A stretch of DNA of 64,000 nt from IMG/VR virus record IMGVR_UViG_3300037264_004923, positions 37,764-101,763 of that record; one strand, given 5' to 3'. The position numbers and the translations under genes were made by a program. Below are positions 19,018 to 38,429 of this stretch, in pieces (positions within the stretch are counted from its first letter, which is position 1; the number at the start of each line of letters is the position of its first letter). The notes under the pieces are model-generated. The model was not told the origin of the DNA. It saw only the letters and a program-made list of their open reading frames with translations, and did not search any database. The stretch comes from a virus.

Positions 19018-19603
19018 GCAATTCCCAATCGTTTTCTACTATGCGTCTTACATCCTTGAATCCAGCTTTCTCCAGTCGGATCCTAAAACTATCGAAGGTA
19101 TATAGAGCCTTGTGAGAGCTCCACTCCGTATAGACTCCAGGATGTGGGACTTCTCCGTCTTTCAAGGTATTGCGCTTCCAGTTAGGATCCCCTGAGATCT
19201 TCTCCCAACCATCGGGGCCTCCGGGAATATCAGAGAAACCTCCGTATAAACAGATCATAGTCTCTTCTGTGGAGTGGATACCCTCAATGTGGGCTCGGCA
19301 CATAAAGTCCAAGTCGGGCATCTTGATAGTCATTTTTCCGCCCGGCTTCAAAATTCTGTTCCATTCCAATAATACCCAGGCAATCTCGGTATAGGAAATG
19401 TGTTCTACAGCGTGGGCGGAATAAAGCTCATCCACAGATTCGCTCTTTAGCCACTCAAGGTTTCGAATGTCGGAAACCTTATTGACATTCCCACCCCCGA
19501 CCACATCTACATGATAGAACCCCTCGATGCCATGAGGACCAGAGCCAAGTTCTATCCTTACAGGTGCGCTCTCTCTTTTAGAGAGCAAGTCTTCAATCCG
19601 CAT
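18992..19603 (-). CDS. Methyltransferase (Methyltransf_11-like)
   Basis: ELGSG, HAVEH, EWNRILKPGG..PD. Confidence 0.85.
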   Translation of the reverse strand: MRIEDLLSKRESAPVRIELGSGPHGIEGFYHVDVVGGGNVNKVSDIRNLEWLKSESVDELYSAHAVEHISYTEIAWVLLEWNRILKPGGKMTIKMPDLDFMCRAHIEGIHSTEETMICLYGGFSDIPGGPDGWEKISGDPNWKRNTLKDGEVPHPGVYTEWSSHKALYTFDSFRIRLEKAGFKDVRRIVENDWELHVIAYKQD

Positions 19604-21548
19604 CTTCTTCCTTCTTTCCCTTCTTTGAGGATTTGAAGGTAAGCGCGGTCTTCTCAGGATTCAGCCCAACAGCGGCCTTGCTATTCTCTTCTATCTCATT
19701 AGAGAGAATGGCGCGAGCCAGTGGAGTATTCAAGTGTCGCTTGATTGCTCTGCGCAAAGGTCGGGCTCCGTACTTCTTATCGATACCACTATCGAGCAAG
19801 AAATTTTTAGCGGCGACACTAAAATTCAAACCCACGCCCTTGCCCTTCTGAATCTGATCTTTCACTTCATCCAACAAGATGTCCAGAATGCTTAGATAGT
19901 CATTCTTTTCGAGCTTGCGGAAATGAACGATCTCGTCCACGCGATTCAGGAACTCGGGCTTAAATCTCTGCTTCAAAGCTTCGTCTCGTGCCTTGGAAGA
20001 CTTTAGGTCCGTCTGGACAGATACATCTCCAAAACCAAGGGTCCTACTAATCTCCGAGACTTCTGCTACCCCAATGTTAGAGGTCATGATAATCACACAC
20101 TCATTAAATGGAACCTTTTTGCCCTTGTTATCGGTTAGTTCTCCGTCGTCGATGATTTGAAGGATACGATCATGAAAGTTAGAATGGGCTTTCTCGATCT
20201 CGTCAAAGAGAATGACAGAGAAAGGGCTCTTGGAAACTTCTTTGGTGAGATGCCCACCATCATCATAGCCAACATACCCCGGCGGGCTTCCCGCAAGTTT
20301 AGCGGACTCGTGCGGTTGCTGATAATCTTGGCAATCAATCCTCACTAGGGGGGCTTCCAAGCAATCTGCTAGAACCTTGGCGGTTTCAGTTTTGCCAACA
20401 CCTGTATTACCGGTGAAAAGAAGTACACCAAGAGGTTCGTGTGGTCTTTTGAGCCCCACAGACGCACGTTGGACAGCATCTGCAATGTGGTGGATTGCTT
20501 CATCCTGCCCAACAACCTTCTGTTTCATCTTATCCGCCAAAGAAATCAAAGTTTCCTTGGACAGATCAGCGAACCTCTTGCGCTTACGAGAAGATACAAT
20601 CTTATCTTCAGAGCCAGACTGGGCGATGCGTCGATTGTTTCTAATCTTGGATCTCTCCCGGGTCTTATACTGGGTGCGGACAGACTTCAAATCTACGCTC
20701 TCGAGCTTCAAAAAAGGATTGTGTTCGATGACAATCGCATAGAGTTCTTCCATTAGAATTTCGGGCTTAATCTTTTCAGAAATACCCAACTGATCCAACA
20801 GCTGGAAGACATCAGAGAAGTCTTCCACGCAACGTTCCACTACAAGAATGTGATAGCCACGGGTAGATTCAAAGGGGCTTCCGCCCAACAAGGATACCAA
20901 CGCGGCATCGCTCTCTTCGTACTTGCGTACATTAACATAGAGCCCGAGGCGATCCCATTTGTGTCCAACTAATTCATATGGAACGTCCACATTGCCTCCA
21001 CCGGCAGAATTAGAGAATGGATTATCAGGAACGTCTTCCGCGGGAGGTGCATCCAAGAGGGGCGCATCCTCATCATCTTCGCGGAATGGATTATCATCTG
21101 TCTTGTAAGGGGTAGAAGTAATAATGGCTGGACCAAAATTAGACAGCGGCGGATCTTGATCCCACAAATCGTTAGAAGTAAGCGCACGGCCCTTTTCTCC
21201 TGCACGCACCGAAGACTTCGTCTTCAGAATGTTATTCTGATTGATGACGATGTTTTCTGGTTTGAATCCTGGGCTGTGCCTAAAGATAAGATCGAGGGCC
21301 TCTTTACGGATCTCTGCCAGTTTTACGATTAACTCGGCTCTCTTGCGAATGTGATAGAAGAAGGGGCCTGCGTTCGCCATGCAAGTCCCGATAACAAAGT
21401 CTTCATAGAGATGGCGATAGATCAAACCCTTCTCAGAAGCCAGAACGGAGAGCTTATCATTTACGTCCGTCTCTGGAAACTCCAGGATCAGGACATAGAA
21501 ATCAGCTGACTCCAATAGCACATTGTGAGTAATGTACTTCTCCACCAT
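19593..21548 (-). CDS. Clp/Hsp100 ATPase with a single D2-type AAA+ module, novel N-terminal half and LGF ClpP-docking loop
   Basis: VVGQDEA, GNTGVGKTE, GSPPGYVGY, LFDEIEKAH, IMTSN, TLGFG, FKPEFLNRVD, YGARPLRR; only one Walker A. Confidence 0.88.
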   Translation of the reverse strand: MVEKYITHNVLLESADFYVLILEFPETDVNDKLSVLASEKGLIYRHLYEDFVIGTCMANAGPFFYHIRKRAELIVKLAEIRKEALDLIFRHSPGFKPENIVINQNNILKTKSSVRAGEKGRALTSNDLWDQDPPLSNFGPAIITSTPYKTDDNPFREDDEDAPLLDAPPAEDVPDNPFSNSAGGGNVDVPYELVGHKWDRLGLYVNVRKYEESDAALVSLLGGSPFESTRGYHILVVERCVEDFSDVFQLLDQLGISEKIKPEILMEELYAIVIEHNPFLKLESVDLKSVRTQYKTRERSKIRNNRRIAQSGSEDKIVSSRKRKRFADLSKETLISLADKMKQKVVGQDEAIHHIADAVQRASVGLKRPHEPLGVLLFTGNTGVGKTETAKVLADCLEAPLVRIDCQDYQQPHESAKLAGSPPGYVGYDDGGHLTKEVSKSPFSVILFDEIEKAHSNFHDRILQIIDDGELTDNKGKKVPFNECVIIMTSNIGVAEVSEISRTLGFGDVSVQTDLKSSKARDEALKQRFKPEFLNRVDEIVHFRKLEKNDYLSILDILLDEVKDQIQKGKGVGLNFSVAAKNFLLDSGIDKKYGARPLRRAIKRHLNTPLARAILSNEIEENSKAAVGLNPEKTALTFKSSKKGKKEEDAD

Positions 21549-21561
21549 TAGGATCTCCCTA

Positions 21562-22434
21562 TTAGAGTTGCGCTGCCTTGATTACCTGAATAGCCTGTTC
21601 CCGGGTAAGTTCTTCGAAAGAACTCACGGGCTGCCCATGTCCATCCACAATTGCTGCGAGAGCAATCAGAGCGGACGGAGTCAAACCCTTTCTGTTTGCC
21701 AGGTTGGTCATGGCATTCAACTGTGTAGAGTTGGGACCAGACGCTTCGGCATTGCTGGTGAAAGGATTTGCTCGAGGCGCCGCGGGGGCCGGCACAGAAA
21801 CTGGACGAGCAGGCGGAGGGGTCGGCTTCGCAAGAGGAGCCGGATTAGCTGCTCCCGCTCCTGAGAACGGATTGCCCGCAAGCTTTGGTGCTGGAGGAGC
21901 CACGGGCTTTGGGGGCGCCGGAGGAGCAACTGGTCGTGCCGGAGGAGCTCCGACAGGCGGGCGAGGGGCGGCAGGAGCTGGAGAGGAAGGGCGGGGGGCG
22001 GGGGCCGGAGGAGTTCTAAACTGCGGCGGAGTAGGAGGAGGAGCCGCGGGCTCTTCATCCTTGTAAAGCTCCAGACCAAGCCCAAGCAGGGTTGCGCATT
22101 TCTTCAAAGCGTCACTTGCGGCGCCCTTGAAAGCGGATCCAACATCAAGACCGCGGGTGATTTCGCAAGAACCAAACTGCTGCTTGGCGACATACTTACC
22201 GTCGGTGGTAGGAACAGAAAGCTCCAGACCAACCACAGCAACGTTGTCAGCAAATACATCATGGGAAACGATACGAGTGTTCCATTCACCACCAAAAGCT
22301 TCGTTCAAAGTATCGATAACGAAGTCCGGAGTAATGTAGGAAAACTCCAAACCGCCCTTGCCTGGGCGAGTCTGAATTTTATCCTTGGGAAGAGCACGAG
22401 TTAAAACGGCAAAAGCATTAGAATCAAGGGACAT
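21562..22434 (-). CDS. Rad52/Rad22-family (Sak-like) single-strand annealing protein with Pro-rich linker
   Basis: RPGKGG..FSYI, LNEAFGGEW, KGAASDALKKCA..LGLGLELY. Confidence 0.9.
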   Translation of the reverse strand: MSLDSNAFAVLTRALPKDKIQTRPGKGGLEFSYITPDFVIDTLNEAFGGEWNTRIVSHDVFADNVAVVGLELSVPTTDGKYVAKQQFGSCEITRGLDVGSAFKGAASDALKKCATLLGLGLELYKDEEPAAPPPTPPQFRTPPAPAPRPSSPAPAAPRPPVGAPPARPVAPPAPPKPVAPPAPKLAGNPFSGAGAANPAPLAKPTPPPARPVSVPAPAAPRANPFTSNAEASGPNSTQLNAMTNLANRKGLTPSALIALAAIVDGHGQPVSSFEELTREQAIQVIKAAQL

Positions 22435-22727
22435 TATTGGTTCTCCACTAAAGAGGCGGTATTATTTTCCGCCGAAACATAAACATTCCCGGCAGGTAAA
22501 GACATACCTTCGCGAGGAAAAATAGCTGTCTTGGTCAAACGATCAGACAACCGCAGCTTACAATCCAGCAAGTATTCATTTACCTGCGGATCATTTAGCA
22601 TACATAGGGCGGTCAGCATCACACGGGTAACATCGCTACCCCCGGTGACCAGCTCGCCAAAGCTAGGATAGGATTTCACGACGGGGATGCCTTCTTCCGC
22701 CGCGCTTCTTCCATCAAAAGAACTCAT
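22434..22727 (-). CDS. Hypothetical protein
   Basis: 97-aa ORF with AAGGAG RBS and upstream promoter. Confidence 0.75.
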   Translation of the reverse strand: MSSFDGRSAAEEGIPVVKSYPSFGELVTGGSDVTRVMLTALCMLNDPQVNEYLLDCKLRLSDRLTKTAIFPREGMSLPAGNVYVSAENNTASLVENQ

Positions 22728-22748
22728 TGTAAATCTCCTTACAACTCA

Positions 22749-22781
22749 ATAATACGACAGGGGACGATAGATGTCAAGAAT
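22749..22781 (-). promoter_or_regulatory. sigma70-type promoter (ATTC-TTGACA-17bp-TATTAT)
   Basis: -35 at 22777-22772, -10 at 22754-22749. Confidence 0.8.
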
Positions 22782-22789
22782 ACTTCCAG

Positions 22790-23299
22790 CTACGGCATGA
22801 ACATACGTAGTCGTCGGTTGTACCAACCCTCCAAAATGTTGGAACTGCTATTTTCTTTCGGATCTCCCACACCAGTAATAACCTCGATACCGCACTCCTG
22901 GCAGGTTTCCCATTCCGGAATGGTGGCCGCGTCTACCCGGTCTCCGCCTTTGGTAAAGACATCGGGTTGAATCGCTTTCAGGGCTTGTATCACGGTAGTG
23001 TCATTTTCTATTTCAAAGGACACCACATAATCTACGCCACGAATAGCAGAAACTACCCCACAACGGTTGCGCAAATCCATAAAGGGAGCCCCCTTCTTAT
23101 GTGCCAGGAACCAATCTCCGTTTACGATTACAACCAAGATGTCTCCATAATTCTTGGAATCTGTCATACAAGAGATGTGTCCCAAATGAATAGGATCGTA
23201 TCCCCCGGACGTCAATACTAACGTACCTTCAATAGAGTCCCGAATGTCCACAAATTCTTGTAGGGACATTATCGGAGCAAAACTAATCCTTTCGCCCAT
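22790..23299 (-). CDS. Cytidylyl/adenylyltransferase (RfaE/TagD-like)
   Basis: SGGYDPIHLGH, GVDYV, KGGDR, SSS. Confidence 0.88.
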   Translation of the reverse strand: MGERISFAPIMSLQEFVDIRDSIEGTLVLTSGGYDPIHLGHISCMTDSKNYGDILVVIVNGDWFLAHKKGAPFMDLRNRCGVVSAIRGVDYVVSFEIENDTTVIQALKAIQPDVFTKGGDRVDAATIPEWETCQECGIEVITGVGDPKENSSSNILEGWYNRRLRMFMP

Positions 23300-24032
23300 G
23301 TGTTTCCTCATACTTTTCAAAAGCCTCTACCAGGTCGGCAACTATTCGACTTCGAACAATGTCGTTTCTGGTAAATTCCACTACGGCAATACTCGGCACG
23401 TCTCTCACGATCTCTATTAACTTACCGAGCCCATTCTGAGTGTGCCGCGGAAGATCGGTCTGGTGGGGATCTCCGTTGATAACCATCTTACAATTCTCAC
23501 CCATGCGAGTTACGGCCATCTTCAGTTGTTCAAAGGTAGCGTTCTGGGCCTCGTCCAAGATTATGAAGCAGTTCGAGAGCGTCCTGCCTCGCATGTAAGC
23601 GAGTGGTGCGATTTCGATGTATTCCCGCTCGATTTTTTCCTTGGTGAGAGAGATCCCAATGATGTCATAAAGAGCATCGTAGATCGGGCGCATGTACGGG
23701 TCGAGTTTCTCTTCTAATCCGCCAGGCAAAAATCCAAGTTTCTCTCCTGCTTCTACTGCCGGGCGCGTAATAATGATACGCTTCATACCCGTCTTGGCCC
23801 AATGATGTTTCAGGGCTTCATAAACAGCAAGGTAGGTCTTGCCTACGCCCGCGTGCCCGGAACTTATAGTAATCGTGTTGTTCTCAATAGCATCCAGATA
23901 AAGTCTTTGACTTTCATTTCGTGGATAAACCTCACGAAGAGTCTTTATGCGGGGTGCCTTCTCTTGAGGAACTTGTTCTTGGTTTTCATAATCGGTCTTT
24001 GGTTGTTTAGTGCGTCGATTTTTGTTGGCCAT
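23283..24032 (-). CDS. phoH: PhoH family ATPase
   Basis: GHAGVGKT, RPAVEAGEKLGFLPG, YMRGRT, DEAQN. Confidence 0.95.
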   Translation of the reverse strand: MANKNRRTKQPKTDYENQEQVPQEKAPRIKTLREVYPRNESQRLYLDAIENNTITISSGHAGVGKTYLAVYEALKHHWAKTGMKRIIITRPAVEAGEKLGFLPGGLEEKLDPYMRPIYDALYDIIGISLTKEKIEREYIEIAPLAYMRGRTLSNCFIILDEAQNATFEQLKMAVTRMGENCKMVINGDPHQTDLPRHTQNGLGKLIEIVRDVPSIAVVEFTRNDIVRSRIVADLVEAFEKYEETHGRKD

Positions 24033-24070
24033 TTAGGAATTTACCCTCCTTATGCGAAGAGACTATTCAA

Positions 24071-24295
24071 CTAAAAAGCTCGAGAGTTAGTAAAGTCTAT
24101 CTTGAAAAACAAACGCGCAAGACCGAGCCAGAGGCGAAGAGTTGCCCCTCGCTCGTATTGATTCTGCCAGAACGTTAATGAAGGCCAGGCAGGTGTCCGA
24201 ATGTAAGAAGGGTGCGCCGTCAGGTCAAAAGAAATGTCCATCTCTTTCTTGCGCCAATAAGGAATTCTGAGTTGAAGGTTTAATACTCCAAACAT
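24071..24295 (-). CDS. Hypothetical protein
   Basis: Start placed at ATG 24295 behind a TAAGGAGG RBS. Confidence 0.6.
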   Translation of the reverse strand: MFGVLNLQLRIPYWRKKEMDISFDLTAHPSYIRTPAWPSLTFWQNQYERGATLRLWLGLARLFFKIDFTNSRAF

Positions 24296-24305
24296 AGTGT
24301 CCTCC

Positions 24306-24542
24306 TTATGCCTTACTTGTGCGAACCACCTCGTCAAAAATGAGTTGAAACAGATACCGAAACATAGGCCCGTCGTGCGTATCTGTGGTCCCACAATGGC
24401 ACTTGACATCTGTATTGACTCGGACTTTCTTCTTATGCTTGTCGCATAATTCGTCATAGCCCTTTTTCCAGATGTCGTATAGTTGTGCGAACGCCACTTC
24501 CGCGGCGTCCCCACATTTACTACAACGTAGCATCACGTACAT
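24306..24542 (-). CDS. Zn-ribbon hypothetical protein
   Basis: CSKC...CHC. Confidence 0.65.
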   Translation of the reverse strand: MYVMLRCSKCGDAAEVAFAQLYDIWKKGYDELCDKHKKKVRVNTDVKCHCGTTDTHDGPMFRYLFQLIFDEVVRTSKA

Positions 24543-24702
24543 TCAGTGCTCCTTCTGGTGCTACCAGAGGTGTCCGGTCCTCTGGTAGCGGGGGCGCGGT
24601 TTGCACCGCTTCCACCAGGAGAGGTTTAAGGTCTCTCTCCACGACTGGGCTCCCCGTTCTCGGAAGTTTTATCTCCCGAGATTGCCCTTGTTCTTCAACC
24701 AT
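24520..24702 (-). CDS. Hypothetical protein
   Basis: 60-aa ORF bridging the neighbouring genes. Confidence 0.45.
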   Translation of the reverse strand: MVEEQGQSREIKLPRTGSPVVERDLKPLLVEAVQTAPPLPEDRTPLVAPEGALNVRDATL

Positions 24703-25602: not shown

Positions 25603-25695
25603 ACTAAAATCCTTTCACTACAATCATAAGACATTTTCTTGTGGCAAGAAAGGACAGGATCCTTCTTTGCCTATCGGCGGGAAACCAATCCCGCC

Positions 25696-26313: not shown

Positions 26314-26347
26314 TTCTTTTCCTCTTCAACTTTTTGGGCGGCGGAAT

Positions 26348-26385
26348 AAAAAGGTGCCCAGCTTCTGTTGCTGGCGGCTGGGCGC
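26348..26385 (-). terminator. Terminator / 3' end of the tmRNA coding piece
   Basis: GCGCCCAGC...GCTGGGCACC followed by TTTTT on the minus strand. Confidence 0.7.
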
Positions 26386-26676
26386 GCCCCTTACTTTATG
26401 ATCGGGTTAGGATCTTAAGCAGTGAGTGTCTTAGCAGGCGCGAGGGTTTCTTTAATAGCAAGTTCACCCTTGTGCATTGCCGCGACATAGTCAGTTAGAG
26501 TCTGATTTAGACTTTGTAGCGCTTTTTTTTATCGCCTCGCTAACGATAGGTCGCGTAATCTCCCTCGCGTCGTCAGTCGATTCCAGTTCATCCCCAGGAT
26601 AAATAAACCTTGCTGGAGATGAGGGGATTCGAACCCCTGTGTTGTCCGACCTTAAGAGACACCGAATTACGACCAT
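26350..26676 (-). ncRNA. ssrA: Circularly permuted (two-piece) tmRNA
   Basis: In transcription order: T-arm AGGGG-TTCGAAT-CCCCT and CATCTCC-A (26621-26614); an 18-nt spacer; GGGGATG (from 26595) with D-loop AACTGGAATCGAC; G3:U70 pair; pk1 at 26517-26548; then a tag frame. Confidence 0.88.
26415..26492 (-). other. Predicted tmRNA tag reading frame (A)DYVAAMHKGELAIKETLAPAKTLTA*
   Basis: TAACT-GAC resume context after pk1; 25 codons ending GCT TAA. Confidence 0.6.
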
Positions 26677-26851: not shown

Positions 26852-26966
26852 GGTCCTCGTGTCGCGCGTCCTCTTGAACCAGCAGGAGCCGAACGTCCTC
26901 GCCAGCGCGCAGTGCGGCGTCGATGGCTACGGGGCCGGCGAGCTGGCGCACGCGAGAGTTCTTCAT
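26852..26966 (-). pseudogene. 5' fragment of a SpoU/TrmH-family RNA methyltransferase (within the insert)
   Basis: MKNSRVRQLAGPVAIDAALRAGEDVRLLLVQED resembles the RlmB/TrmH N-terminal domain; cut off at the junction. Confidence 0.5.
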
Positions 26967-26978
26967 CTGCCGTTCAGC

Positions 26979-28751
26979 TTACGGAAGAAATGCCGTGCAG
27001 ACATGAGAGATGCCCGGGGCGAGGCTCGCGAGCGCGCGGCGCAGGCGGACGGAGTCTTCGAGATCACAGGCCGCGCTGCCGCCGACGTCACACTTTTCGG
27101 GCGCGGCAGGCGCGCTCTCCGAGCCGGCCAGGAACGAACGCAACGCGCTCACATCCGCGGCATCGATCCGGCCGTCGTCGCTCGTGTCGCCACACTGACA
27201 GAGATCGCCAATCCCGTCGGGTGACGCCGTCGCGAGCCCGCCCGAGTCGGTCTGCTCCGCGTTCGCCTCGACCGGGCAGTCGTCGAGCGCATCCTGGATG
27301 CCGTCGCCGTCGAAGTCGCCGCTCGCCGCCGCGACCGTCCCACCGAGATGCCCGCGAACCAGTATGCCGTTCGGGCTGGCGGTCGCGAAGAGCACGTCCG
27401 CGCCGGCGAGTCCGCCAACGCTGTTCGCGTGCAGGATCATCGGACCCGGGCAGCACTCCTGGCCGATTGCGCCGGCGGGACTGGTGGCGGCGATCGTCTG
27501 GGCTACACCGAAGCGCGACGCGAGCAGTGGGTGCGGCGATGCGAGGTTGCGCTTGTCGAACGCGAGCAGCGCGAGACCGCCGTCGTTGTACGACGTCGCG
27601 GCCAGAAAGTCGCCCGAAGCGCCGAAGCTCACCTGCGAGACGTAGGAGTACACGCCGCTCGCGCCCGGCGGCGGAGAAAGCACGATCGGGTTCAGGCCGC
27701 CGCGGATCACCCGCTTGCGCAGACAGGGGACACCCCCGGCGCTCGCGTAGCTACCGTCGTTGCAGGAGGGCCGTTGCAGGCGCGCATCGACCGCCGCTGC
27801 GGGCAGCGCGGCGATTCCGCGCACGTCGACCGCGACGAGCTGGCGCAGCGTCGCGGAGCCGGCGACCGCGACCGAGCTCGTCGGGTCGAGCGCGAGTCCG
27901 CGACCCGACGGATTGCCCGGTCCGAGCGGAATGGAGCCGACGAGCCGGCCGGTCGACACCTCGAGCACGTCGATGCTGCCCTGACCCGTGACCAGCGGCG
28001 GAAAACCGGCGTCGTAGATCCCCGCGTTGGTCACCGCGACGCGTCCGCCGGGAAGCGGGGTGAGGGCGACCGGGTTCGGATCCGAGGTGATCGCGAAGAA
28101 CGGGCTCGCCGGTGTCAGCGTCGTCGTCGCTCCGGAATCGTCGAGCGCGAAGAAAAGCACCGTGCCGGGATTCCAGATCGGATTCGATCCGGCCTGGTGG
28201 ATGTTCGAGGTCGCGACGACCAGACGATTCCCGACGCGCAGCGCGGAGCTGGTGAAGCTCGTCTTGAACGACGTGATCGCGGCGCCGGCGCCGGAATTCT
28301 GGTAGCGCGTGAACGCACCCGTGATCGTGTGCTTGGTCGGCACCGACGTGCGACTCTGACCCGAGTACAGAATCGTGTACCCGGCGCCACTCGCGTAGTT
28401 GAACGGCACGACGAGCTCGCAGTTCGACGTCGTGATCCATCCCCGAGTGACTCCGGTTCCGCGCTCGAGCGCCACGTTCCCGATCGTCGGCTCGTTGAAG
28501 GGCGCCGACTCGGTGCAGTTCACATTCCCCGGCAGCGAATACGACGCGCCGACATAGGCGAGCGCTTGCGTCGGCGCGATTCGCACCTCGAAGACGCCCG
28601 GGCCGTTACTCGATGCGGCGATGAAGGCGCGGTCGGGGTTGGTCGGGTGCGTCTCGAGCGCGGGCGGCGCAAACGTGTCGACGAGCAACGTGTCGGTTGC
28701 GGCCGAGCCGACGGAGAGGGTTGCAGCGAGCAGGGCGGCCGCCACGCTCAT
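26979..28751 (-). CDS. Secreted beta-propeller-like protein with C-terminal TSP3-type and dockerin-like Ca-binding motifs
   Basis: Signal-like MSVAAALLAATL; DFDGDGIQDALDDCP and DGIGDLCQCGDTSDDGRIDAADV. Confidence 0.75.
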   Translation of the reverse strand: MSVAAALLAATLSVGSAATDTLLVDTFAPPALETHPTNPDRAFIAASSNGPGVFEVRIAPTQALAYVGASYSLPGNVNCTESAPFNEPTIGNVALERGTGVTRGWITTSNCELVVPFNYASGAGYTILYSGQSRTSVPTKHTITGAFTRYQNSGAGAAITSFKTSFTSSALRVGNRLVVATSNIHQAGSNPIWNPGTVLFFALDDSGATTTLTPASPFFAITSDPNPVALTPLPGGRVAVTNAGIYDAGFPPLVTGQGSIDVLEVSTGRLVGSIPLGPGNPSGRGLALDPTSSVAVAGSATLRQLVAVDVRGIAALPAAAVDARLQRPSCNDGSYASAGGVPCLRKRVIRGGLNPIVLSPPPGASGVYSYVSQVSFGASGDFLAATSYNDGGLALLAFDKRNLASPHPLLASRFGVAQTIAATSPAGAIGQECCPGPMILHANSVGGLAGADVLFATASPNGILVRGHLGGTVAAASGDFDGDGIQDALDDCPVEANAEQTDSGGLATASPDGIGDLCQCGDTSDDGRIDAADVSALRSFLAGSESAPAAPEKCDVGGSAACDLEDSVRLRRALASLAPGISHVCTAFLP

Positions 28752-28962
28752 GGCGTCCTCCCGCGCACGCGCAGCAGCCAGAGCGTCTGATTCGGCAGCG
28801 GCTGACCGAGCGAATCCGAGCGCTGCTCGTGAGTCAGGTTCGCGGCCTCGATCGATAGCGTCAGATCCGCGGGAAACAGCGCAAGCCCTGGCACGCGGCG
28901 CGGCCGGAGGATCACGCCCGCGTCGACCTGGAGCGCGGCGTCCGAGAGCGTCGCACGGCCAA
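28748..28962 (-). pseudogene. 3' fragment of a TonB-dependent receptor (within the insert)
   Basis: LTLSIEAANLTHEQRSDSLGQPLPNQTLWLLRVRG resembles the TBDR C-terminal NL..G.P.P motif; stop overlaps the next ATG. Confidence 0.55.
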
Positions 28963-28985
28963 CCTCCATGTTTTTCTCCCATGTC

Positions 28986-29165
28986 TCAAATGTATTCTTC
29001 TCTATCGAACTCGTCTGCCTCGCAAGGACATTGCTCTTGTGCCTGTTCTGGAAAGGGGCAGCCCATACTACAGGTTCCATCGCAGTCGGGATGATGAACT
29101 GGAACGATTACAACATACCAACCCTCTCCTCTACAACGAGGGCATCTTGGATTTGGTCGAGACAT
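28986..29165 (-). CDS. Small Cys-rich hypothetical protein (59 aa, below the ORF-track cutoff)
   Basis: MSRPNPRCPRCRGEGW...CDGTCSMGCP...QCPC; ATG overlaps the upstream TAA. Confidence 0.65.
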   Translation of the reverse strand: MSRPNPRCPRCRGEGWYVVIVPVHHPDCDGTCSMGCPFPEQAQEQCPCEADEFDREEYI

Positions 29166-29434
29166 TACTTCTTCAAACCTCTGGCGCCCTTCTTTCCTTG
29201 GGAAAGATCATAAGGGCTTGGTCCTGGGTAGCGGCGGGTGTTTGGATAAGTGCGTGGTTTATATAGCGCCGAAATAATTTCTTCCTTGGTGGGAACATGA
29301 TTGATCTTCTTCAGTGCTTCCTTGGCTATGCGGTGGCAAGGTCCGGGCGGGGATAGATCTGCGCCCTGCCCATCTTCTCGCATGATGTCTTCCAAGGCTT
29401 TCAGTGCTACTTTTAACTTCTCTACGTCCGTCAT
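29165..29434 (-). CDS. Hypothetical protein
   Basis: 89-aa ORF, coupled operon position. Confidence 0.65.
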   Translation of the reverse strand: MTDVEKLKVALKALEDIMREDGQGADLSPPGPCHRIAKEALKKINHVPTKEEIISALYKPRTYPNTRRYPGPSPYDLSQGKKGARGLKK

Positions 29435-29435
29435 T

Positions 29436-29639
29436 TTACCACCTTTTAGCGGACTCTTTTATCTTCAGTCTATAGGAAATTGCGGGCTGGTTGATTTCTT
29501 CCACCGGCGCAAAAATTGCTCCGTCGGCATGAACAAGAGTTCCATCGAACCTCTTTACGAAACCAGAGCACATGGAGCAGTCTTGCCTGTAGCCCATACC
29601 ATCACAGGGCCCTTCGTGTCGGGTTTGTTCTGTATTCAT
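29436..29639 (-). CDS. Hypothetical protein (possibly leaderless)
   Basis: ATG 6 nt after the -10 box; CDG...CSMC. Confidence 0.55.
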   Translation of the reverse strand: MNTEQTRHEGPCDGMGYRQDCSMCSGFVKRFDGTLVHADGAIFAPVEEINQPAISYRLKIKESAKRW

Positions 29640-29645
29640 AACGTA

Positions 29646-29678
29646 ATAATACCTCATTCTCCCCTAATAGTCAAGAAT
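29646..29678 (-). promoter_or_regulatory. sigma70-type promoter (ATTC-TTGACT-17bp-TATTAT)
   Basis: -35 at 29674-29669, -10 at 29651-29646. Confidence 0.75.
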
Positions 29679-29687
29679 CAATCCCAG

Positions 29688-29891
29688 CTAATCCCGCCAG
29701 CATTCCAGTGCGCGTTGCTCGTCGATCGCTCGCTCGTATCCTGCCTCATAGCCCTGTCGATAAGCAGCCTCTTGCCGGGTCTCAAGGCGAGGGCTAAAGG
29801 AATGATCGGCAGGGAATCGATGGTTGTATGGGTTCTCGGTCTGAAAACACTTGGAGCAAATAGTCTGCGGCTTAACCTTTGGCGTTCTCAT
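29688..29891 (-). CDS. Hypothetical protein
   Basis: CSKC..H, AYRQGYEAGYE. Confidence 0.55.
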   Translation of the reverse strand: MRTPKVKPQTICSKCFQTENPYNHRFPADHSFSPRLETRQEAAYRQGYEAGYERAIDEQRALECWRD

Positions 29892-30186
29892 TACGCGCTT
29901 TCCTTCTTTCCTGAATACGAGATCTGACGGCAGCAATAGCACTTCGCATTTCTGCTTCTAACTGATCAGCCTCACCCTCGGCAGCAGAAAGTTCTTCCGC
30001 ACTGACTCGAAAAGATAATCGAGTCGGAGCACTTCTGTTTTCTTTGCATCGATCAAGTTGAATAGTTTCCTTCCAAAGCTGCTTAATTTCCTCGACCAAA
30101 GGTGCGCGGAAGGGCGGTTTGATCTCATAACCCGCGGGAAGAACTGATTTTGCAAGCCAAATTCTAAACTCATTGAACATTTTCAT
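29872..30186 (-). CDS. Hypothetical protein
   Basis: GGAGG RBS; helical C-terminus. Confidence 0.6.
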   Translation of the reverse strand: MKMFNEFRIWLAKSVLPAGYEIKPPFRAPLVEEIKQLWKETIQLDRCKENRSAPTRLSFRVSAEELSAAEGEADQLEAEMRSAIAAVRSRIQERRKARNENAKG

Positions 30187-30725: not shown

Positions 30726-30726
30726 A

Positions 30727-31383: not shown

Positions 31384-31385
31384 TG

Positions 31386-32637: not shown

Positions 32638-32657
32638 GATTTAGACCTCAAGGTTGG

Positions 32658-32936
32658 CTATTCGTTGCGATCGCAAGAAGTGGCGGTCGCCTCTTCTACC
32701 TGCTTACTCAGAGTGGAAGTCTGGCGGGAAAGCAAATCCACAGCCCACTGAAAGCGGCAAGCCAAGAAGAGAAGAGCGACGCGCTCTTGGGAAAAATCAT
32801 CATTCACAAACCACCCGTTGTGGGTAGCAACTTCTTTTGCGAAGTCTGGGTTAGCAAGAATATTGCCAACCACATCTAAAGTTCGCTCAATAGAGACACC
32901 ATTTGGCTGGGTCTCCACTTCAATTACATTATTCAT
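32658..32936 (-). CDS. Hypothetical protein
   Basis: GGAGG RBS before ATG 32936. Confidence 0.6.
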   Translation of the reverse strand: MNNVIEVETQPNGVSIERTLDVVGNILANPDFAKEVATHNGWFVNDDFSQERVALLFLACRFQWAVDLLSRQTSTLSKQVEEATATSCDRNE

Positions 32937-33028
32937 TTCTTCCTCCAAAACTCCGGCGTCGGGGATGACCTTCATCACCATACCGGTTGTTTCTTGGGAC
33001 GGGCTCCGCACGAGGCGGAGCACGTCGG

Positions 33029-33529
33029 TTAAACCAGTCCGAGTCGCGCTGCTACCCGTCGAGTCTGAGTGTATCGAGTGTATCGCTCACCAGTCTCGTC
33101 TTCCCAACTCTGGAGAGGCTGCTCAGTGGCGTAGCGTCTCTGGAAACGAAGGGCTTCTGGAGTGCGGCCAAGAGCGCCTGCCAAGATGAGATTAGTATCC
33201 GGAGTTGCCGGGGTGACCAGCACAGCGGCGATGTCAACATCCGACCAAGCGTTTCTGGAATTGCCAGGAACAACCTCAATCAGATTGGCATTGCCGAAGG
33301 CTTGCTTCTTTACTTCCTTGCGAAGTACCTCTGTATTGTAAGCATAGAACTCAGCTACGCTTCGAACTAGGCGGGTGGTCTTAGGGTTGCGGGAAGCAGA
33401 CACGCTGCGGAACTCCCGCAATGCGTTATCGAACTCAGCCACCTGAAGGAAAGCAATTCCCTTGCGGATGGTGCGAACACCCCGGGCTACCGTAGCCTGA
33501 GAAGTCCTGTTAAAACTAAAAATACTCAT
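33029..33529 (-). CDS. Hypothetical protein with C-terminal HTH/Myb-like motif
   Basis: NAWSDVD...LAGALGRTPEAL. Confidence 0.6.
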   Translation of the reverse strand: MSIFSFNRTSQATVARGVRTIRKGIAFLQVAEFDNALREFRSVSASRNPKTTRLVRSVAEFYAYNTEVLRKEVKKQAFGNANLIEVVPGNSRNAWSDVDIAAVLVTPATPDTNLILAGALGRTPEALRFQRRYATEQPLQSWEDETGERYTRYTQTRRVAARLGLV

Positions 33530-34191
33530 TTCTCTTTCTCCTTTTTGACCCTAAAGTTGGGTCTTCCTTTTGTGAACTTTTCGGTCGTCCTCTTCATCTG
33601 CATCAAAGATTGTAGATAGCCTTCAACTACAGCTGGAAGATCTTTTATCTCACAGAAGCACATGGCCGGGTGCTCTGGATTGAAAACACGATAGAAGGTG
33701 TTGCATCCTGTTTCGTTCTGAAACTTGTTTCTTTCCGGCTCCTTGTCCAAATCGCCGGAGAAAATGTAGGACATGGGAATAACGACGGCGCGTGTAGTGT
33801 TATAGTTTACCTTGACAAACAGAGACATGGGGTGGGACACAAAGAACTTCTTTTTGCGGGACAGAACCGAGAAGCCCTTGACCCAGTTAGGCGGAAAGGG
33901 AAGATCAGATGTCCATTTTGCTTCCTCTGTATTCTCAATCTCAATCCCAAAATCCGAGTACCCCTTAGCGGTGGCGACGATGTCTATTCCATTTGGACCT
34001 TCTGGATGTAATAGCAACTTGTACTTCTGAAGGGCAGAGGCTCCGGCAAGAACCCGGAACACATCCTTCTCTGTTTTTGATGCCTCAGTATTATCTACCA
34101 TTACGCCTCCTTCGGCTGGCAAGAGGGGCAGAAATGAGTCGATCTTCCGGATACTTTTACCCGTTCTATAGAACTTTCGCACTCGACGCAT
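33526..34191 (-). CDS. Putative PD-(D/E)XK-like nuclease
   Basis: GIDIV...GIEIE. Confidence 0.45.
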   Translation of the reverse strand: MRRVRKFYRTGKSIRKIDSFLPLLPAEGGVMVDNTEASKTEKDVFRVLAGASALQKYKLLLHPEGPNGIDIVATAKGYSDFGIEIENTEEAKWTSDLPFPPNWVKGFSVLSRKKKFFVSHPMSLFVKVNYNTTRAVVIPMSYIFSGDLDKEPERNKFQNETGCNTFYRVFNPEHPAMCFCEIKDLPAVVEGYLQSLMQMKRTTEKFTKGRPNFRVKKEKEK

Positions 34192-34997
34192 TTCTTTCCA
34201 AACTTTCCATAAACCCGATGGTGCTCTTGATAAGAACCTTTGCTACCATCGGTAGCGGTGTAATCTGATACAGAAGATCCGCGATAATGAATACCCTCTT
34301 TGAGGACACTCTTTACAGCGAACCATAGTTTGGTCTGTTGCTCTTCGGTTAGAGAGGTTCCCAGAACACCTGGATGAACCTTGGCGACGAAGCAGGCTTC
34401 ATCTGTGTAGATGTTTCCTACCCCCGCCAAATTTGCTTGGTCAAGCAGTATTGCTTTTACACTTCTCTTGCGGCGAATGATTTTTTGGAACTCCGCCAAT
34501 GAAACTCCCAAGGCGTCGGGACCCAAGCCCCGTAGTCCAGGGATGTCTAACTCTTCGATGCTCTGAACATTCTCTGCTAACCAGATCTCGCCGAACAAGC
34601 GCACATCGTTGAAAGCCAGCTCCAAATCTTCTTCGCGGCCGCCTTCGTACAGATCGGAAAGCTCCAGCATGAAGTGCGTATGCTTATGGATGTTGTCGTC
34701 GCCGCTAAAGCGATCATCGAAACTTATCTGAGGAATAGGACGAAGAAGAAGACGACCAGTCATCCCCAAGTGAAAAACTATTACATTGCCATTGATCAGG
34801 GGAAGCAGAATGTACTTACCTTTTCGCAATACGGTGCTAATCTCTTGTCCAATCACACCTTCATAAAAGGCAAAGGGATCGTTGTTTAGGAGGTGCTTCT
34901 CTGCCTTCTGCCGAATAACCAAAGCGGTAATGGTTCGCCCAGAAATAGCCGGGCGTAGATCCCTAACAATTGTTTCGCACTCAGGAAGCTCAGGCAT
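34101..34997 (-). CDS. mutM: Formamidopyrimidine-DNA glycosylase
   Basis: MPELPE, RKGKY, HLGMTG, GVGNIY, C-terminal zinc finger. Confidence 0.95.
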   Translation of the reverse strand: MPELPECETIVRDLRPAISGRTITALVIRQKAEKHLLNNDPFAFYEGVIGQEISTVLRKGKYILLPLINGNVIVFHLGMTGRLLLRPIPQISFDDRFSGDDNIHKHTHFMLELSDLYEGGREEDLELAFNDVRLFGEIWLAENVQSIEELDIPGLRGLGPDALGVSLAEFQKIIRRKRSVKAILLDQANLAGVGNIYTDEACFVAKVHPGVLGTSLTEEQQTKLWFAVKSVLKEGIHYRGSSVSDYTATDGSKGSYQEHHRVYGKFGKKCVECESSIERVKVSGRSTHFCPSCQPKEA

Positions 34998-35464
34998 TAT
35001 TCCTCCTGTTCTTTTCGTGACAAGTAAAAGGCCGGGAGGTTCTTATTCGCGGAGATGTCCGCGTAGGAACCCCGAAAAATGTAAGCCGCAATACCAAGAC
35101 ATGTATTACCAGGCAGCGCCTTGATAACAGAACGAGCAGCACCAAACGAGGTAATAACGTCATCAACGATCAGATAGTTTCCAGATTGAAACTCTGGACC
35201 TCGTACCTTACCAGACTTATCCACTATAACCAAAGGCCTCTTGGAGGCAAATGCTGCAAGGAACCCCGGGATAATTCCACCAATAGCAGGGCTCGCAATG
35301 AAATTTACTCGTCGCATAATGTCATTAGGAACTTGCTGGAGAAGCTGCTCTATATACACAGCAGCCTCGGCAGGTTTAAGCAGATCAAAATCATAGAAAA
35401 TCTTGGACTGACGTTCGGAAGAAAGAACGAAATCGCCCTCGACACGACACTCTTCAAACATCAT
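34997..35464 (-). CDS. Type I phosphoribosyltransferase (orotate PRT-like)
   Basis: GDFVLSSERQS..YD, IVDDVITS. Confidence 0.82.
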   Translation of the reverse strand: MMFEECRVEGDFVLSSERQSKIFYDFDLLKPAEAAVYIEQLLQQVPNDIMRRVNFIASPAIGGIIPGFLAAFASKRPLVIVDKSGKVRGPEFQSGNYLIVDDVITSFGAARSVIKALPGNTCLGIAAYIFRGSYADISANKNLPAFYLSRKEQEE

Positions 35465-35470
35465 ATCCCC

Positions 35471-36433
35471 TCAGTAGTCCGTGGTCATCGTGTAATGATG
35501 ATTCAACCACTCGTGTGTGAAAAGTCCCGCGGGCATCTCCGCGCCGCGCGTAGCTGCACTCCAGAGAAGGAAGTCAGTGTTCAGGGAATTTACACTTTCG
35601 TCCACCAAAGATTTCAAGTTTTTGGTAATCATGTCCGCCCCGATTATAGAAGCGGCGCGAAGTTCTAATTCTTTCTGACTACCAGACGCCAAGAACTCCT
35701 TGCGATGAAGACGAGTCATAAGCTGAGAACGGGGCTCGATAACACCCAGCGCAATCAAAGTCTGAGGCACTCTATAGTCCGAAAAGATCGTTAGATCTGA
35801 TAGGCTTTCATCGTCAATAGGGCATTCTGTCCAGTCCTGGAAGCGCCCATAAGTCATACCTACAAACAGCTGGGAACGCTTGAAGAAAGGATCCCTCCAA
35901 CTTGGAAGCATAACCGGAAGGTATTGCGAAACAAAGTAAGCATTCCGCTTGTACTTCTGAAATAGTTTAGCAAAGGTAAAGTCCTGGTTCTTGTTTAGGA
36001 ACGCTCCAATCTCTCGCAGCGCGTTGGTGCGCTGCCTCACCATGGAGATGGGGCGTTCAGCGCGAAACAACTCACACAGCAGGTAATTCTCATCGACCTG
36101 GGAAAGAAAATAAGGGTCCTTGATCTCTTCCCAATGCTCCGTCAGACGAGCGCATATCAAGGAACAACCAGAAAGATCTCCATCCTGAAACTTCTTACCA
36201 TCCTCATCAAAATAACAGTAGTTAACCGCATTCAAGAAGAGATTGAAAAGACATACATTTTCGAAGTCATCCACCTGTGGATGAAAACGAGGATCGAAAT
36301 CCCAACGAGGAATGGAGATGTCATACTCCTTCAAAGCTTCGGCTACTTCTCGGGCACGCCCGGGGTTTAGACGGACGTACTGCGGGTTTGCCAGGATAAT
36401 GTCAGATAAGGCTCTCACTCTTGACATACTCAT
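35471..36433 (-). CDS. Queuosine salvage protein (QNG1/DUF2419-like N-glycosylase)
   Basis: NAVNYCY, FFKRSQL, LTIFSDYRVPQ, ELELRA, DFLLW, HH.T.TTDY; start placed at 36433. Confidence 0.85.
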   Translation of the reverse strand: MSMSRVRALSDIILANPQYVRLNPGRAREVAEALKEYDISIPRWDFDPRFHPQVDDFENVCLFNLFLNAVNYCYFDEDGKKFQDGDLSGCSLICARLTEHWEEIKDPYFLSQVDENYLLCELFRAERPISMVRQRTNALREIGAFLNKNQDFTFAKLFQKYKRNAYFVSQYLPVMLPSWRDPFFKRSQLFVGMTYGRFQDWTECPIDDESLSDLTIFSDYRVPQTLIALGVIEPRSQLMTRLHRKEFLASGSQKELELRAASIIGADMITKNLKSLVDESVNSLNTDFLLWSAATRGAEMPAGLFTHEWLNHHYTMTTDY

Positions 36434-37019
36434 AAACTCCCCGAAAAGTTTTGCGATGAATGTCAGAAGGACCATAAACCATGATCGCTTCTCTATGTTC
36501 TTCTGTGCCATAACCTTTGTGTCTCGCGAACCCATACATGGGCAAGATGTCGTCCAAGCTGACCATGTACTGATCTCTATGAACCTTCGCAACAATGGAG
36601 GCGGCAGCAATACATTTGTGGATGTTATCCCCGCCCACGACAGCTTGTTGCTTTACCCCTGGCAAATCCAGGTTGGGAATAGTTTGATTTCCATCTACCA
36701 GCACCAAAATCTCCTGCCCATCTACCATAAATTCCAAGCATAAACGACGGGCAGCTTCCCGCATGCACATCAGAGTTGCCTGAAAGATGTTCATCTCATC
36801 AATCTGATACGGATCCGCGCTTGCTAAAGTCCAAAAGCAGTTCTCACGAATAAGAGCGGATAGCTGTTCTCGCTTCTTGGCAGAGAGCTTCTTGCTATCC
36901 CGGATCTCAGCAACCCAAGGATAGTCTACGTCAGGAAGCATCACAGCGGCAACAACAACCGGTCCCGCTAAAGAACCTCTTCCGACTTCATCAACTCCGA
37001 TTGTAATCCGGTGCTTCAA
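36402..37019 (-). CDS. rnhB: Ribonuclease HII
   Basis: GVDEVGRG, DSKKL, DGN, AASIVAKV.RD, HKGYGT. Confidence 0.95.
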   Translation of the reverse strand: MKHRITIGVDEVGRGSLAGPVVVAAVMLPDVDYPWVAEIRDSKKLSAKKREQLSALIRENCFWTLASADPYQIDEMNIFQATLMCMREAARRLCLEFMVDGQEILVLVDGNQTIPNLDLPGVKQQAVVGGDNIHKCIAAASIVAKVHRDQYMVSLDDILPMYGFARHKGYGTEEHREAIMVYGPSDIHRKTFRGVYEYVKSESLI

Positions 37020-37428
37020 CGTTAGATCCTTGCTGTAAGTTGTTATCTACGGACACCTCAGGTCCACCACCAGTAAGGCCCTCACGCTCGTCGCCTCTCT
37101 GACTAAGAGAGGCGGCGTTCGCGGTAGTGCGAGGCATCTCGATAGTCTGTCTCTGCAACGGAGTTCCATCCTCATGAACCTTGATGATGCCAAGTTCAAC
37201 CATCTTGCGGATCAAACGCTGTGTACTCTTATCGATCTGTGGAATGTACCTCCCCTCAACAGGTTCTCGGTTTTTGTACTCACCCTTGAACTGGTAGATG
37301 GTACAAGTGCGATGCTTTTTGGGAGACACGCCAATGGTCTTGGAAGTACACATGTTCCCGGACAGAAGCGCACAATCAACGCAACGAACCTTGTTTTTTC
37401 CGCCGTTAAACTGGCTCATTTTCGTCAT
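36991..37428 (-). CDS. Cys-containing hypothetical protein
   Basis: CVDC...C...C; operon position. Confidence 0.6.
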   Translation of the reverse strand: MTKMSQFNGGKNKVRCVDCALLSGNMCTSKTIGVSPKKHRTCTIYQFKGEYKNREPVEGRYIPQIDKSTQRLIRKMVELGIIKVHEDGTPLQRQTIEMPRTTANAASLSQRGDEREGLTGGGPEVSVDNNLQQGSNVEAPDYNRS

Positions 37429-37828
37429 CCTCTATAGAAATCACAGCGTTACTTGGCCCTGATTTCCTCGGACCTCCAAGAACTTCATCCTTTGTTCCTA
37501 CTCTTATGCCTGGACCGTACCCTTTAGACGGCTCACGGGTGCGGTGGACGGAGCGAACGGCAAGCCTCGCAGCAAGTTCAGGGTCTGTGCCTTCCATCTG
37601 ACTGGCTTCGGATAAAACTGCGGGGTCCATTGGGAAGGAAGTCTTACCCTTTTCCTGAATAGCGGCCTTCGGCGGCCGGCCGCGCTTTTTAGGAGCAGAT
37701 GTGTCGCCAGTAAGTTCCTTTATCAGGCTAATCTTGGCATCGATTTGAGAGATCTCAAAAAGCAAGGCTTCCTTATCAGCTTCCAGTTCCAAAATCTTTT
37801 CATTTAGCGCTTTTACAAAATCACTCAT
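37406..37828 (-). CDS. Coiled-coil protein with AT-hook-like motif
   Basis: KKRGRPPK; start placed at 37828. Confidence 0.6.
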   Translation of the reverse strand: MSDFVKALNEKILELEADKEALLFEISQIDAKISLIKELTGDTSAPKKRGRPPKAAIQEKGKTSFPMDPAVLSEASQMEGTDPELAARLAVRSVHRTREPSKGYGPGIRVGTKDEVLGGPRKSGPSNAVISIEDDENEPV

Positions 37829-38429
37829 TGCTTTCCCTCGTACTGACTTCGTGAATGTCGTCGATAATACCAAACGACTTGGCTTCAACAGGCCCCATGT
37901 ACTTATCCCGCTCAAAGATGTCTTTAACTTCTGTCAGAGACTTGCCTGTATTCTTCGCCAGAAGAGACATCATAGTATCGTTCAGGAAGACCATCTCCTC
38001 ATACTGGATTGCCACATCAGGAGCGGATCCGTGGGCGCCGCCTTGTACCTGATGCATCATAATGCGAGCATGCGGGAGCGCAAATCGCTTACCTTTGGTT
38101 CCCGCCGCCAATAAAAAGCAACCCATACTTGCTGCTTGCCCGATACAAATCGTTGCGATGTCGGGCTTAACATAACGCATAGTGTCGTAGATCCCCATGC
38201 CCGCATTCACTTCTCCTCCAGGAGAGTTTATGTACATGTAGATCTCTTTGTTAGGATCAGAACTTTCCAGAAACAGCAACTGCGCAATCACTGCGTTCGC
38301 CACCTGTGAATTGATCTGCGTTCCTAAAAAGATGATGCGGTCTTTTAGAAGGCGGGAGTAAAGATCGTAAGCCTTCTCGCTGCTTCCATCTTTTTCAATG
38401 ACAATAGGAAGAGGATAATAGGTAGTCAA
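37821..38429 (-). CDS. clpP: ATP-dependent Clp protease proteolytic subunit
   Basis: DLYSRLLKDRIIFL, YINSPGG, AASMG, MHQ, ERD. Confidence 0.96.
   Translation of the reverse strand: MTTYYPLPIVIEKDGSSEKAYDLYSRLLKDRIIFLGTQINSQVANAVIAQLLFLESSDPNKEIYMYINSPGGEVNAGMGIYDTMRYVKPDIATICIGQAASMGCFLLAAGTKGKRFALPHARIMMHQVQGGAHGSAPDVAIQYEEMVFLNDTMMSLLAKNTGKSLTEVKDIFERDKYMGPVEAKSFGIIDDIHEVSTRESNE

Follow-up and report, generated by a model that had tools for sequence, protein, structure and literature searches.

Complete transfer-messenger RNA (tmRNA) genes are known from several groups of phages. By survey, a tmRNA occurs anywhere in only 2.3% of phage genomes, and two-piece forms, such as the ssrA genes of methylophage Melnitz and the pelagimyophages, account for 53 of the 133 unique phage tmRNAs (PMC9004378). 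A list of ssrA-bearing phages includes Bacillus phage G and the cluster-C mycobacteriophages (PMC4131195), and huge phages carry tmRNA and SmpB (PMC7162821). Clp components have likewise been reported: phage G has a tmRNA plus a ClpP-ClpX pair (PMC12484599), Sinorhizobium phage AP-J-162 offers a case of ClpP with a Clp ATPase among jumbo phages (PMC11242549), and ClpP, ClpA and ClpX in jumbo phages were surveyed by Iyer et al. (PMC7824862). The idea that phages tag proteins for degradation has already been voiced (PMC9004378), and it has been hypothesized in general terms that phages rescue ribosomes which host RNases have stalled (PMC7824862). Here, we analyze a 64,000-nt stretch of DNA (the window), corresponding to bases 37764-101763 of the 101,763-bp IMG/VR viral contig IMGVR_UViG_3300037264_004923, for which CheckV estimates a completeness of ~34%. 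It encodes a two-piece tmRNA, a ClpP and an atypical Clp ATPase, all of them present and intact, and the same parts are inherited together in a phage lineage. To our knowledge, phage tmRNAs and ClpP proteins have been catalogued, with no function tested for either.

Like bacterial trans-translation coupled to ClpXP/ClpAP, this system brings together in one genome an alanine-identity tmRNA with a pseudoknot (PK1) and a tag reading frame, a ClpP, and an AAA+ unfoldase predicted to dock on ClpP. It departs from the bacterial scheme in several respects: no SmpB or SspB was found on the contig, the tag has an LTA end and reaches two to three times the normal length, the unfoldase belongs to neither the ClpX nor the ClpA type, and the coupling of tag and protease is here only putative. 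The gene shares with published phage tmRNAs its completeness and its alphaproteobacterial two-piece type, and the related loci L001, L117 and L118 also pass the Rfam alpha_tmRNA model. Unlike the published cases, it belongs to a different phage lineage, whose tags of 25-35 residues have a common internal motif and whose tmRNA genes, in both one-piece and two-piece forms, occupy a fixed site upstream of a Rad52-like gene and the ATPase gene. As in phage G, AP-J-162 and the surveyed jumbo phages, a large phage has its own ClpP, Clp ATPase and tmRNA; unlike in these phages, the ATPase is of another family and the genes are dispersed rather than adjacent. In the open-access literature, we found no paper on the long-tag tmRNA lineage or on this family of unfoldases and its N-domain. 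These two, the unfoldases and the tmRNA lineage in which one-piece and two-piece forms occupy one locus, are the most original aspect of the finding. The coordinates of all features are given in Table 1.

Table 1. Features of the tmRNA, the Clp ATPase and ClpP in the window, and of the second-lineage loci (positions of the latter are those of the respective loci).
Feature	Position	Strand	Basis or remark
Two-piece (circularly permuted) tmRNA gene: acceptor piece, 18-nt spacer, coding piece	26345..26674	minus	Rfam RF04321, ARAGORN -ps80, covariation
Acceptor piece: helix-2 5' strand GGTCG, T-arm, acceptor 3' strand CATCTCC and discriminator A	26614..26674	minus	Sequence
Coding piece, from GGGGATG (acceptor 5' strand) at 26595: helix-2 3' strand CGACC, PK1, tag frame, terminator	26345..26595	minus	Sequence
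Pseudoknot PK1	26517-26548	minus	Sequence, covariation
Tag reading frame (Q)TLTDYVAAMHKGELAIKETLAPAKTLTA and TAA (26417-26415)	26415..26504	minus	Homology with frame and stop of relatives
Terminator hairpin and T-run, ending near 26345	26345-26382	minus	Downstream of tmRNA tag frame
Clp/Hsp100 D2-type unfoldase, single ring, 651 aa, with phage-specific N-region	19593..21548	minus	Pfam, AlphaFold2 model
LGF tripeptide, predicted ClpP-docking loop (residues 504-506)	20031..20039	minus	Gap-free alignment to LGF of JGI-named ClpC
N-region of the unfoldase, two homologous repeats of ~100 residues	20634..21548	minus	AlphaFold2 models, hhalign
Cellular-type ClpP, 202 aa	37821..38429	minus	Pfam PF00574, 247 bits
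Second-lineage loci L035, L057, L059, L060, L072, L078	ATPase near 9000-11000, tmRNA 12500-17650		tmRNA 2-7 kb downstream

The tmRNA gene was identified by a match to the Rfam model RF04321 (tmRNA_permuted) at positions 26475-26674, minus strand, with 56.3 bits against a gathering score of 47 (E 2.8e-08). The 3' half of its tRNA-like domain is encoded ahead of the 5' half, an order labeled 'Permuted' by ARAGORN run with -ps80. With default settings ARAGORN reported no tmRNA in the window, so surveys based on this program would overlook it; the relaxed thresholds (-ps80) recovered the permuted tRNA-like domain but picked wrong tags in place of the true one. The window tmRNA was aligned (A4) with five relatives, four with distinct tags, and 33 pairs were proposed. 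Compensatory double changes were found in 18 of the 33 pairs and 88.8% of the cells pair across the six sequences, while none of 500 shuffles reached the observed values and sliding the partners lowered pairing to 36-51%. Helix 2 showed compensatory changes in two of its five pairs and the PK1 stems in four of five each; the T-stem is 100% paired, and the third acceptor pair is G.U (G3:U70) in all six sequences. A G.U pair at this position is the alanine determinant recognized by alanyl-tRNA synthetase (AlaRS). The window tmRNA is real and under selection. Its acceptor piece continues with GCA, and CCA is not encoded. Because of this, a phage CCA-adding enzyme is of relevance, and one with a PolyA_pol domain (G000:C1:34646-35059, within a 506-aa open reading frame [ORF]) lies just upstream of the window, as do ten tRNAs. 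A 24-nt exact T-arm/acceptor pattern, considered as an indicator of the host, was ruled out since it also occurs in unrelated tmRNAs and tRNAs.

The tag frame was fixed by homology to the frame of the relatives, and the tag choices of ARAGORN were discarded. Translation would resume at CAG (26504) or at GAC (26492), and the tag accordingly has 25-29 residues. Its C-terminus reads TLTA, with LTA in place of LAA, which makes the tag non-canonical. Among the two-piece relatives, the tag is GTSLMEYATRLHAEELVSEDVEQVAIAA in L001 and L114, GNSLVEYATRLHAKELVSKDVEQVAIAV in L116, DNLMVDYAAKLHAEELVSEDEGLVAFAA in L118, and a peptide of 34 residues with an AIAA end in L117. Distant relatives with a one-piece tmRNA encode GKVKMVDYARGSLNDGISVVKSKSNYLMAA, GESMLDYALRQLEGVIELKGNTMTASV and GKSMITYMADMLNSCPVRHSEPLTALAA, and the tag of a fourth was read by us as SNSMITHMADMLDSCPVRHVESLTALAV. 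The relatives' tags end in AIAA, AFAA, LMAA, ALAA, AIAV, ALAV or TASV. A hydrophobic-Ala-Ala end is kept in four of nine distinct tags, which come from five of ten tmRNA-bearing loci, and from these the LTA of the window differs; by analogy, tags with Ala-Ala ends would be acceptable under the ordinary host ClpXP/ClpAP rule. Common to all tags of the lineage is the motif [ML]-x-[DE]-Y-A near the N-terminus, which recalls the N-Y-A of canonical tags and is followed in the close clade by L-H-A-E-E-L-V-S-E-D. The ratio of nonsynonymous to synonymous polymorphism (pN/pS) was 0.34-0.60 among the relatives' 28-codon tags, a small sample, indicating purifying selection on the peptide.

Two further observations concern the tag region. 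The tag frames of L001 and L114 show one synonymous difference in 84 bases, and the tRNA-like domains and PK1 of the same two loci show many differences at paired positions; recombination or a very strong constraint on the tag could account for the near-identity of the frames. The post-tag motif CAACAGAA was tried as a lineage marker in a 16-nt scan, which gave 110 matches, about the chance expectation, and it was rejected because the scan also matched ordinary alpha-type permuted tmRNAs with canonical ANDN...LAA tags. A scan with a more specific 20-nt pattern recovered L001 alone, which was already known.

Several of these features would also be expected if the window tmRNA were a decaying copy. 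Its Rfam score is the lowest of the clade (56 bits, versus 65-97 bits in the relatives), ARAGORN detected it only at the relaxed threshold, it has neither an encoded CCA nor an Ala-Ala end, and the C-terminal half of its tag has diverged. However, pairing is intact in all helices, G3:U70, helix 2 and the two PK1 stems included, the tag frame is uninterrupted and stops at the homologous position, the terminator is intact, and L001, L114 and L116 likewise have no encoded CCA. We therefore regard decay as highly improbable.

The second component is the Clp ATPase. Its Pfam content is restricted to AAA_2 (residues 372-540) and ClpB_D2-small (residues 546-626); Clp_N, D1 and lid_9 were absent by Pfam, and the protein does not have the class I two-ring architecture of ClpA and ClpC. 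The Walker A and Walker B motifs, the GYVG pore loop and the GARPLRR sensor are all there. Equivalog models gave 308 bits versus 993 for ClpA and 322 versus 1232 for ClpB, and the ClpX models 35 and 26 bits versus cut-offs of 359 and 371; the N-region holds no Cys4 motif. In the AlphaFold2 model, the D2 module resembles NBD2 of ClpB and D2 of ClpC and ClpA. Identity to the D2 ring of ClpC, ClpC1 and ClpA is 40-47%; the motifs are shared, and the LGF sits at the corresponding point of the loop. Unlike ClpC and ClpA, the phage protein has no D1 ring, Clp_N or middle domain and bears a duplicated N-domain instead. At the predicted docking loop, [LVM]GF is found in 19 of 20 members of the ATPase family, while ClpB has a 9-residue deletion at the position of the phage LGF. 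ClpB does not bind ClpP. Taken together, sequence and model predict a one-ring ClpP partner with ClpX-like logic, in which a D2 module is joined to a family-specific selector domain. Its architecture thus resembles that of ClpX (one ring and a selector domain), yet it is built on a D2 module. Inteins, recognized by LAGLIDADG or Hint domains, were also seen inside the AAA+ module of the ATPase homologues P0021, P0029, P0054, P0082, P0299 and L022:10001-12403.

In the AlphaFold2 models, the N-region consists of two repeats, residues 1-125 and 188-305, each a beta-hairpin with helices, joined by a disordered acidic and proline-containing linker (residues 134-186). The repeats align with each other in hhalign with a probability of 93% (E 2.9e-07). 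Searches for relatives of this N-domain gave no match in Pfam or PHROG and no usable match in the ESM Atlas; the best Foldseek hit in the PDB had an E value of 0.5, and the best VIA-align Z score of 5.0, for YqbN (3klu) and the HK97 tail-assembly chaperone (2ob9), is within noise. A profile search of 1.84 billion representatives returned 102 clusters. Most of the matches are 590-700 aa long or longer intein-bearing forms, and in seven of the eight scanned matches of 325-860 aa, including single-repeat forms of 430-490 aa, a D2 ATPase module lies C-terminal to the N-domain. Among the matches scanned, every one of sufficient length for an ATPase module had such a module behind the N-domain. For the shorter matches (57-325 aa), Pfam gave nothing, and they may represent fragments or repeats that stand alone.

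The third component is the ClpP encoded at 37821-38429, which scored 284 bits with NCBIfam NF001368 (cut-off 249). The Ser (AASMG), His (MMHQ) and Asp (ERD) motifs of its catalytic triad were read in the translation, their positions being judged from the full-length profile match. PHROGs file ClpP-like proteins under 'head maturation protease'. A rival reading is that ClpP and the ATPase function in building or maturing the virion, as prohead protease and chaperone, with no relation to the degradation of tagged proteins. This is very unlikely: the head-maturation model Clp_rel_HeadMat gave the same ClpP 69 bits, below its cut-off of 120, whereas the cellular cut-off was exceeded, and its gene is surrounded by genes for replication and nucleotide metabolism rather than by structural ones. 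From its sequence, the window ClpP is thus classified as the cellular type and not as a prohead protease. The initial annotation of this stretch had named a permuted tmRNA with a non-canonical tag, an intact clpP and an atypical Clp ATPase with an LGF, and the scores, motifs and domain content given above bear out all three. It was also right that the genes are not adjacent, with gaps of 4.8 kb between tmRNA and ATPase, 11 kb between ClpP and tmRNA, and 16 kb between ClpP and ATPase.

To what extent the three components occur together was then examined in related phages. ATPase and ClpP are both found in the window, in G002 (228 kb, 86% complete) and in G003 (133 kb), at a spacing of 3 kb in G003, where ClpP is downstream, and of ~130 kb in G002. 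Further metagenome contigs carrying both were recognized by identical 'longest contig' values in the ATPase and ClpP match lists. At least seven such contigs exist (246311, 295848, 209107, 194028, 100700, 75892 and 35607), and their percentages of identity to the window ATPase and ClpP are, in the same order, 87/86, 67/72, 60/68, 60/68, 59/67, 64/67 and 66/69. Among the matches listed, the contigs of 237064, 206360, 312051 and 320154 appeared for the ATPase only. One ATPase/ClpP pair of contigs bears an identical metagenome-assembled genome name, and the closest ClpP homologues form one clade. The coinciding contigs and the tracking identities indicate that ATPase and ClpP are co-inherited.

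A long-tag tmRNA and the ATPase were found together in 10 of 12 informative loci (window, L001, L114, L116, L117, L118, G004, G005, G006 and G007), with the tmRNA 1.7-6 kb upstream on the same strand. In L001, the window and all four metagenome loci with enough upstream sequence, the tmRNA is of the permuted form and precedes the ATPase by 3.6-4.8 kb. A one-piece tmRNA lies 1.7-6 kb upstream in G004, G005, G006 and G007, which form a clade with only 36-40% ATPase identity; G007 was located by a tmRNA motif scan and not via its ATPase. In the remaining two loci, G002 and G003, neither Rfam model detected a tmRNA, nor is there one at the syntenic position. Both nevertheless retain ClpP and an ATPase with the two N-repeats, and the tmRNA is thus not strictly kept or lost together with the unfoldase and ClpP.

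The gene order around the tmRNA is itself conserved, running g31822, g30183, tmRNA, g24669, PhoH, cytidylyltransferase, g22434, Rad52-like gene, ATPase, methyltransferase, GT2. The tightest neighbor of the ATPase is the Rad52-like gene rather than the tmRNA, and the genes that separate the tmRNA from the ATPase have nucleotide-metabolism and recombination functions. The co-occurrence of tmRNA and ATPase is that of an inherited conserved genome block and not of a dedicated module; with one lineage and a common gene order, it amounts to about one evolutionary observation. The co-occurrence that would be required of a joint system is found in weak form: the parts do occur together in a phage lineage, in 10 of 12 loci for tmRNA and ATPase and on the contigs named above for ClpP and ATPase, but this reflects block synteny, and G002 and G003 have no tmRNA. 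Within the block, one-piece (L100-L102, L235) and two-piece (window, L001, L114, L116-L118) tmRNAs with similar long tags are found at one and the same site, ahead of the Rad52-like gene and the ATPase, which suggests either circular permutation within the phage lineage or replacement in place.

A tmRNA also accompanies an unfoldase in other phages. Among 80 IMG/VR loci centered on D2-type Clp ATPases, nine have a tmRNA within 10 kb, to be compared with the surveyed 2.3% of phage genomes with a tmRNA at any position (PMC9004378), and six of these nine show another architecture, namely a two-ring ClpC of 671-682 aa that has no N-domain and adjoins an M42 peptidase-like gene. The tags of these second-lineage loci have 17-21 residues and an EEV-x-[VA]A end in five of six cases (e.g., GETFAKLQAVGLLRTEEVAVA); L057 has a tag of 8 residues (GETLAIAA).

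No gene for SmpB (PF01668) was found in the 101,763-bp contig or in five relatives, these six contigs all being fragments, and the window's contig has no SspB, ClpS or second Clp ATPase. The initial annotation had noted the absence of smpB from the window, and this absence extends to the whole contig. As neither a phage SmpB nor an adaptor was found, the rescue step would depend on host factors. The explanation we favor, by a modest preference, is that the phage has two co-inherited modules, namely tmRNA rescue relying on host factors and a Clp protease of its own, whose selector domain is new. By analogy with known tmRNA and ClpA/C-ClpP behavior, the two-piece tmRNA would be cut into two RNAs, receive its CCA end from the phage or host CCA-adding enzyme and be charged by host AlaRS via G3:U70. 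Host SmpB and EF-Tu would then deliver it to ribosomes stalled on broken or stop-less mRNAs, where it would append the tag of 25-29 residues. The phage Clp protease would consist of the cellular-type ClpP and a lineage-specific, hexameric one-ring unfoldase docking through its LGF loops, with the duplicated N-domain selecting substrates. The two modules probably meet only generically, tagged proteins being degradable by any Clp or Lon proteases present.

That no SmpB was found in the six contigs would also suit a tmRNA that manipulates the host, by titrating SmpB, sensing stalled ribosomes or tagging host nascent chains for amino-acid recycling, with the Clp protease separately removing host defense or regulatory proteins. 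Roles of this kind have been proposed for phage tmRNAs (PMC9004378, PMC7162821, PMC4131195) and for phage ClpP (PMC7824862). However, the full mRNA-like domain, PK1 and the tag frame are conserved, which weighs against an SmpB decoy because a pure decoy would not need them; the DS6A-type decoy has little beyond a tRNA-like domain (PMC4131195). We consider such host manipulation quite improbable.

The initial annotation had gone further and proposed an orthogonal tag-and-degrade circuit or, as an alternative, a rescue of ribosomes stalled by host anti-phage RNases. In an orthogonal circuit, the internal motif of a long private tag would be bound by the duplicated N-domain of the unfoldase, and tagged proteins would be fed to phage ClpP independently of host ClpXP. 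In its favor, the three parts co-occur in the lineage, all long-tag tmRNA loci were found in ATPase-holding records, the tag is conserved at the peptide level, the N-domain, whose fold matches none known, is seen only ahead of this ATPase module, the tags of the window and of some relatives end in LTA, ASV, IAV or LAV, and a second phage lineage pairs tmRNA with a ClpC-like unfoldase. On the other hand, the co-occurrence is block synteny in a single lineage, G002 and G003 have the ATPase, its N-domain and ClpP without a tmRNA, the Ala-Ala tags end in the canonical manner, the three genes are non-adjacent with unrelated genes between them, and no phage SmpB or adaptor was found. The presence and co-inheritance of the parts thus stand, while their orthogonal coupling is unlikely.

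Some of the observations nonetheless weigh against two modules that meet only generically. The shared internal motif of the tags could, as far as can be judged from sequence, be a candidate binding site for a dedicated reader. The window tag has no Ala-Ala end, which host ClpX normally needs. The neighborhood of tmRNA and ATPase holds down to 35-40% ATPase identity, and its recurrence with an unrelated unfoldase lineage hints at more than chance. Finally, as the contig is only ~34% complete, a phage SmpB or adaptor could be encoded elsewhere in the genome.

The surroundings of these genes encode a Pol I-type DNA polymerase, DnaB helicase, primase, clamp, exonuclease, ribonucleotide reductase and PhoH, as well as the Rad52-like protein, an Fpg glycosylase, a queuosine-salvage protein and many glycosyl- and methyltransferases. 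Close homologues of window proteins are held by metagenome contigs of 190-320 kb, and from this and the gene content we conclude that the window represents the part of an uncultured jumbo phage genome devoted to replication and auxiliary functions. No match to this region was found among GenBank phages by megablast, and in tblastn searches with the ATPase against the same phages no record covered ≥80% of it and none more than 65%. Directly upstream of the tmRNA lies a high-GC island (window positions 26900-30000; GC content of 0.58-0.62 vs ~0.47 elsewhere) that has the appearance of a recent insertion. Within it, an ORF of 667 aa (26979-28982, minus strand) encodes thrombospondin-type-3/dockerin Ca-binding repeats; PHROG gave no match for this ORF, and L117 and L118, which are syntenic relatives, carry nothing equivalent. 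Between ClpP and ribonucleotide reductase there is an ORF of 268 aa (38696-39502, minus strand) that contains a NUMOD3 motif and resembles homing endonucleases. In distant relatives, a tRNA with a CUA anticodon was labeled 'tRNA-Pyl' by ARAGORN (L016:6356-6432 and L235:4550-4622), and the ClpP match of G002 (G002:C1:215669-216205) contains an in-frame TAA; that clade may recode a stop codon.

The lineage offers a compact, testable case, with a conserved motif inside the tag, an unfoldase selector domain without known relative and a co-inherited ClpP, and it comes with natural controls in the form of relatives without a tmRNA and tags with and without an Ala-Ala end. Reading of the tag by the N-domain would make this the first orthogonal degron system encoded by a virus and a possible degradation tag for synthetic biology. 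If such a private pathway is true, the phage could dispose of truncated proteins, or mark host proteins and recycle them, without recourse to host ClpXP, with the corollary that its tmRNA switched between one-piece and two-piece forms within a phage lineage at a fixed position. If the N-domain does not read the tag, the unfoldase would still represent a new route from the D2 ring of ClpA/C to a ClpX-like one-ring partner of ClpP. In addition, one-piece and two-piece tmRNAs at the same locus bear on how tmRNA genes become permuted.

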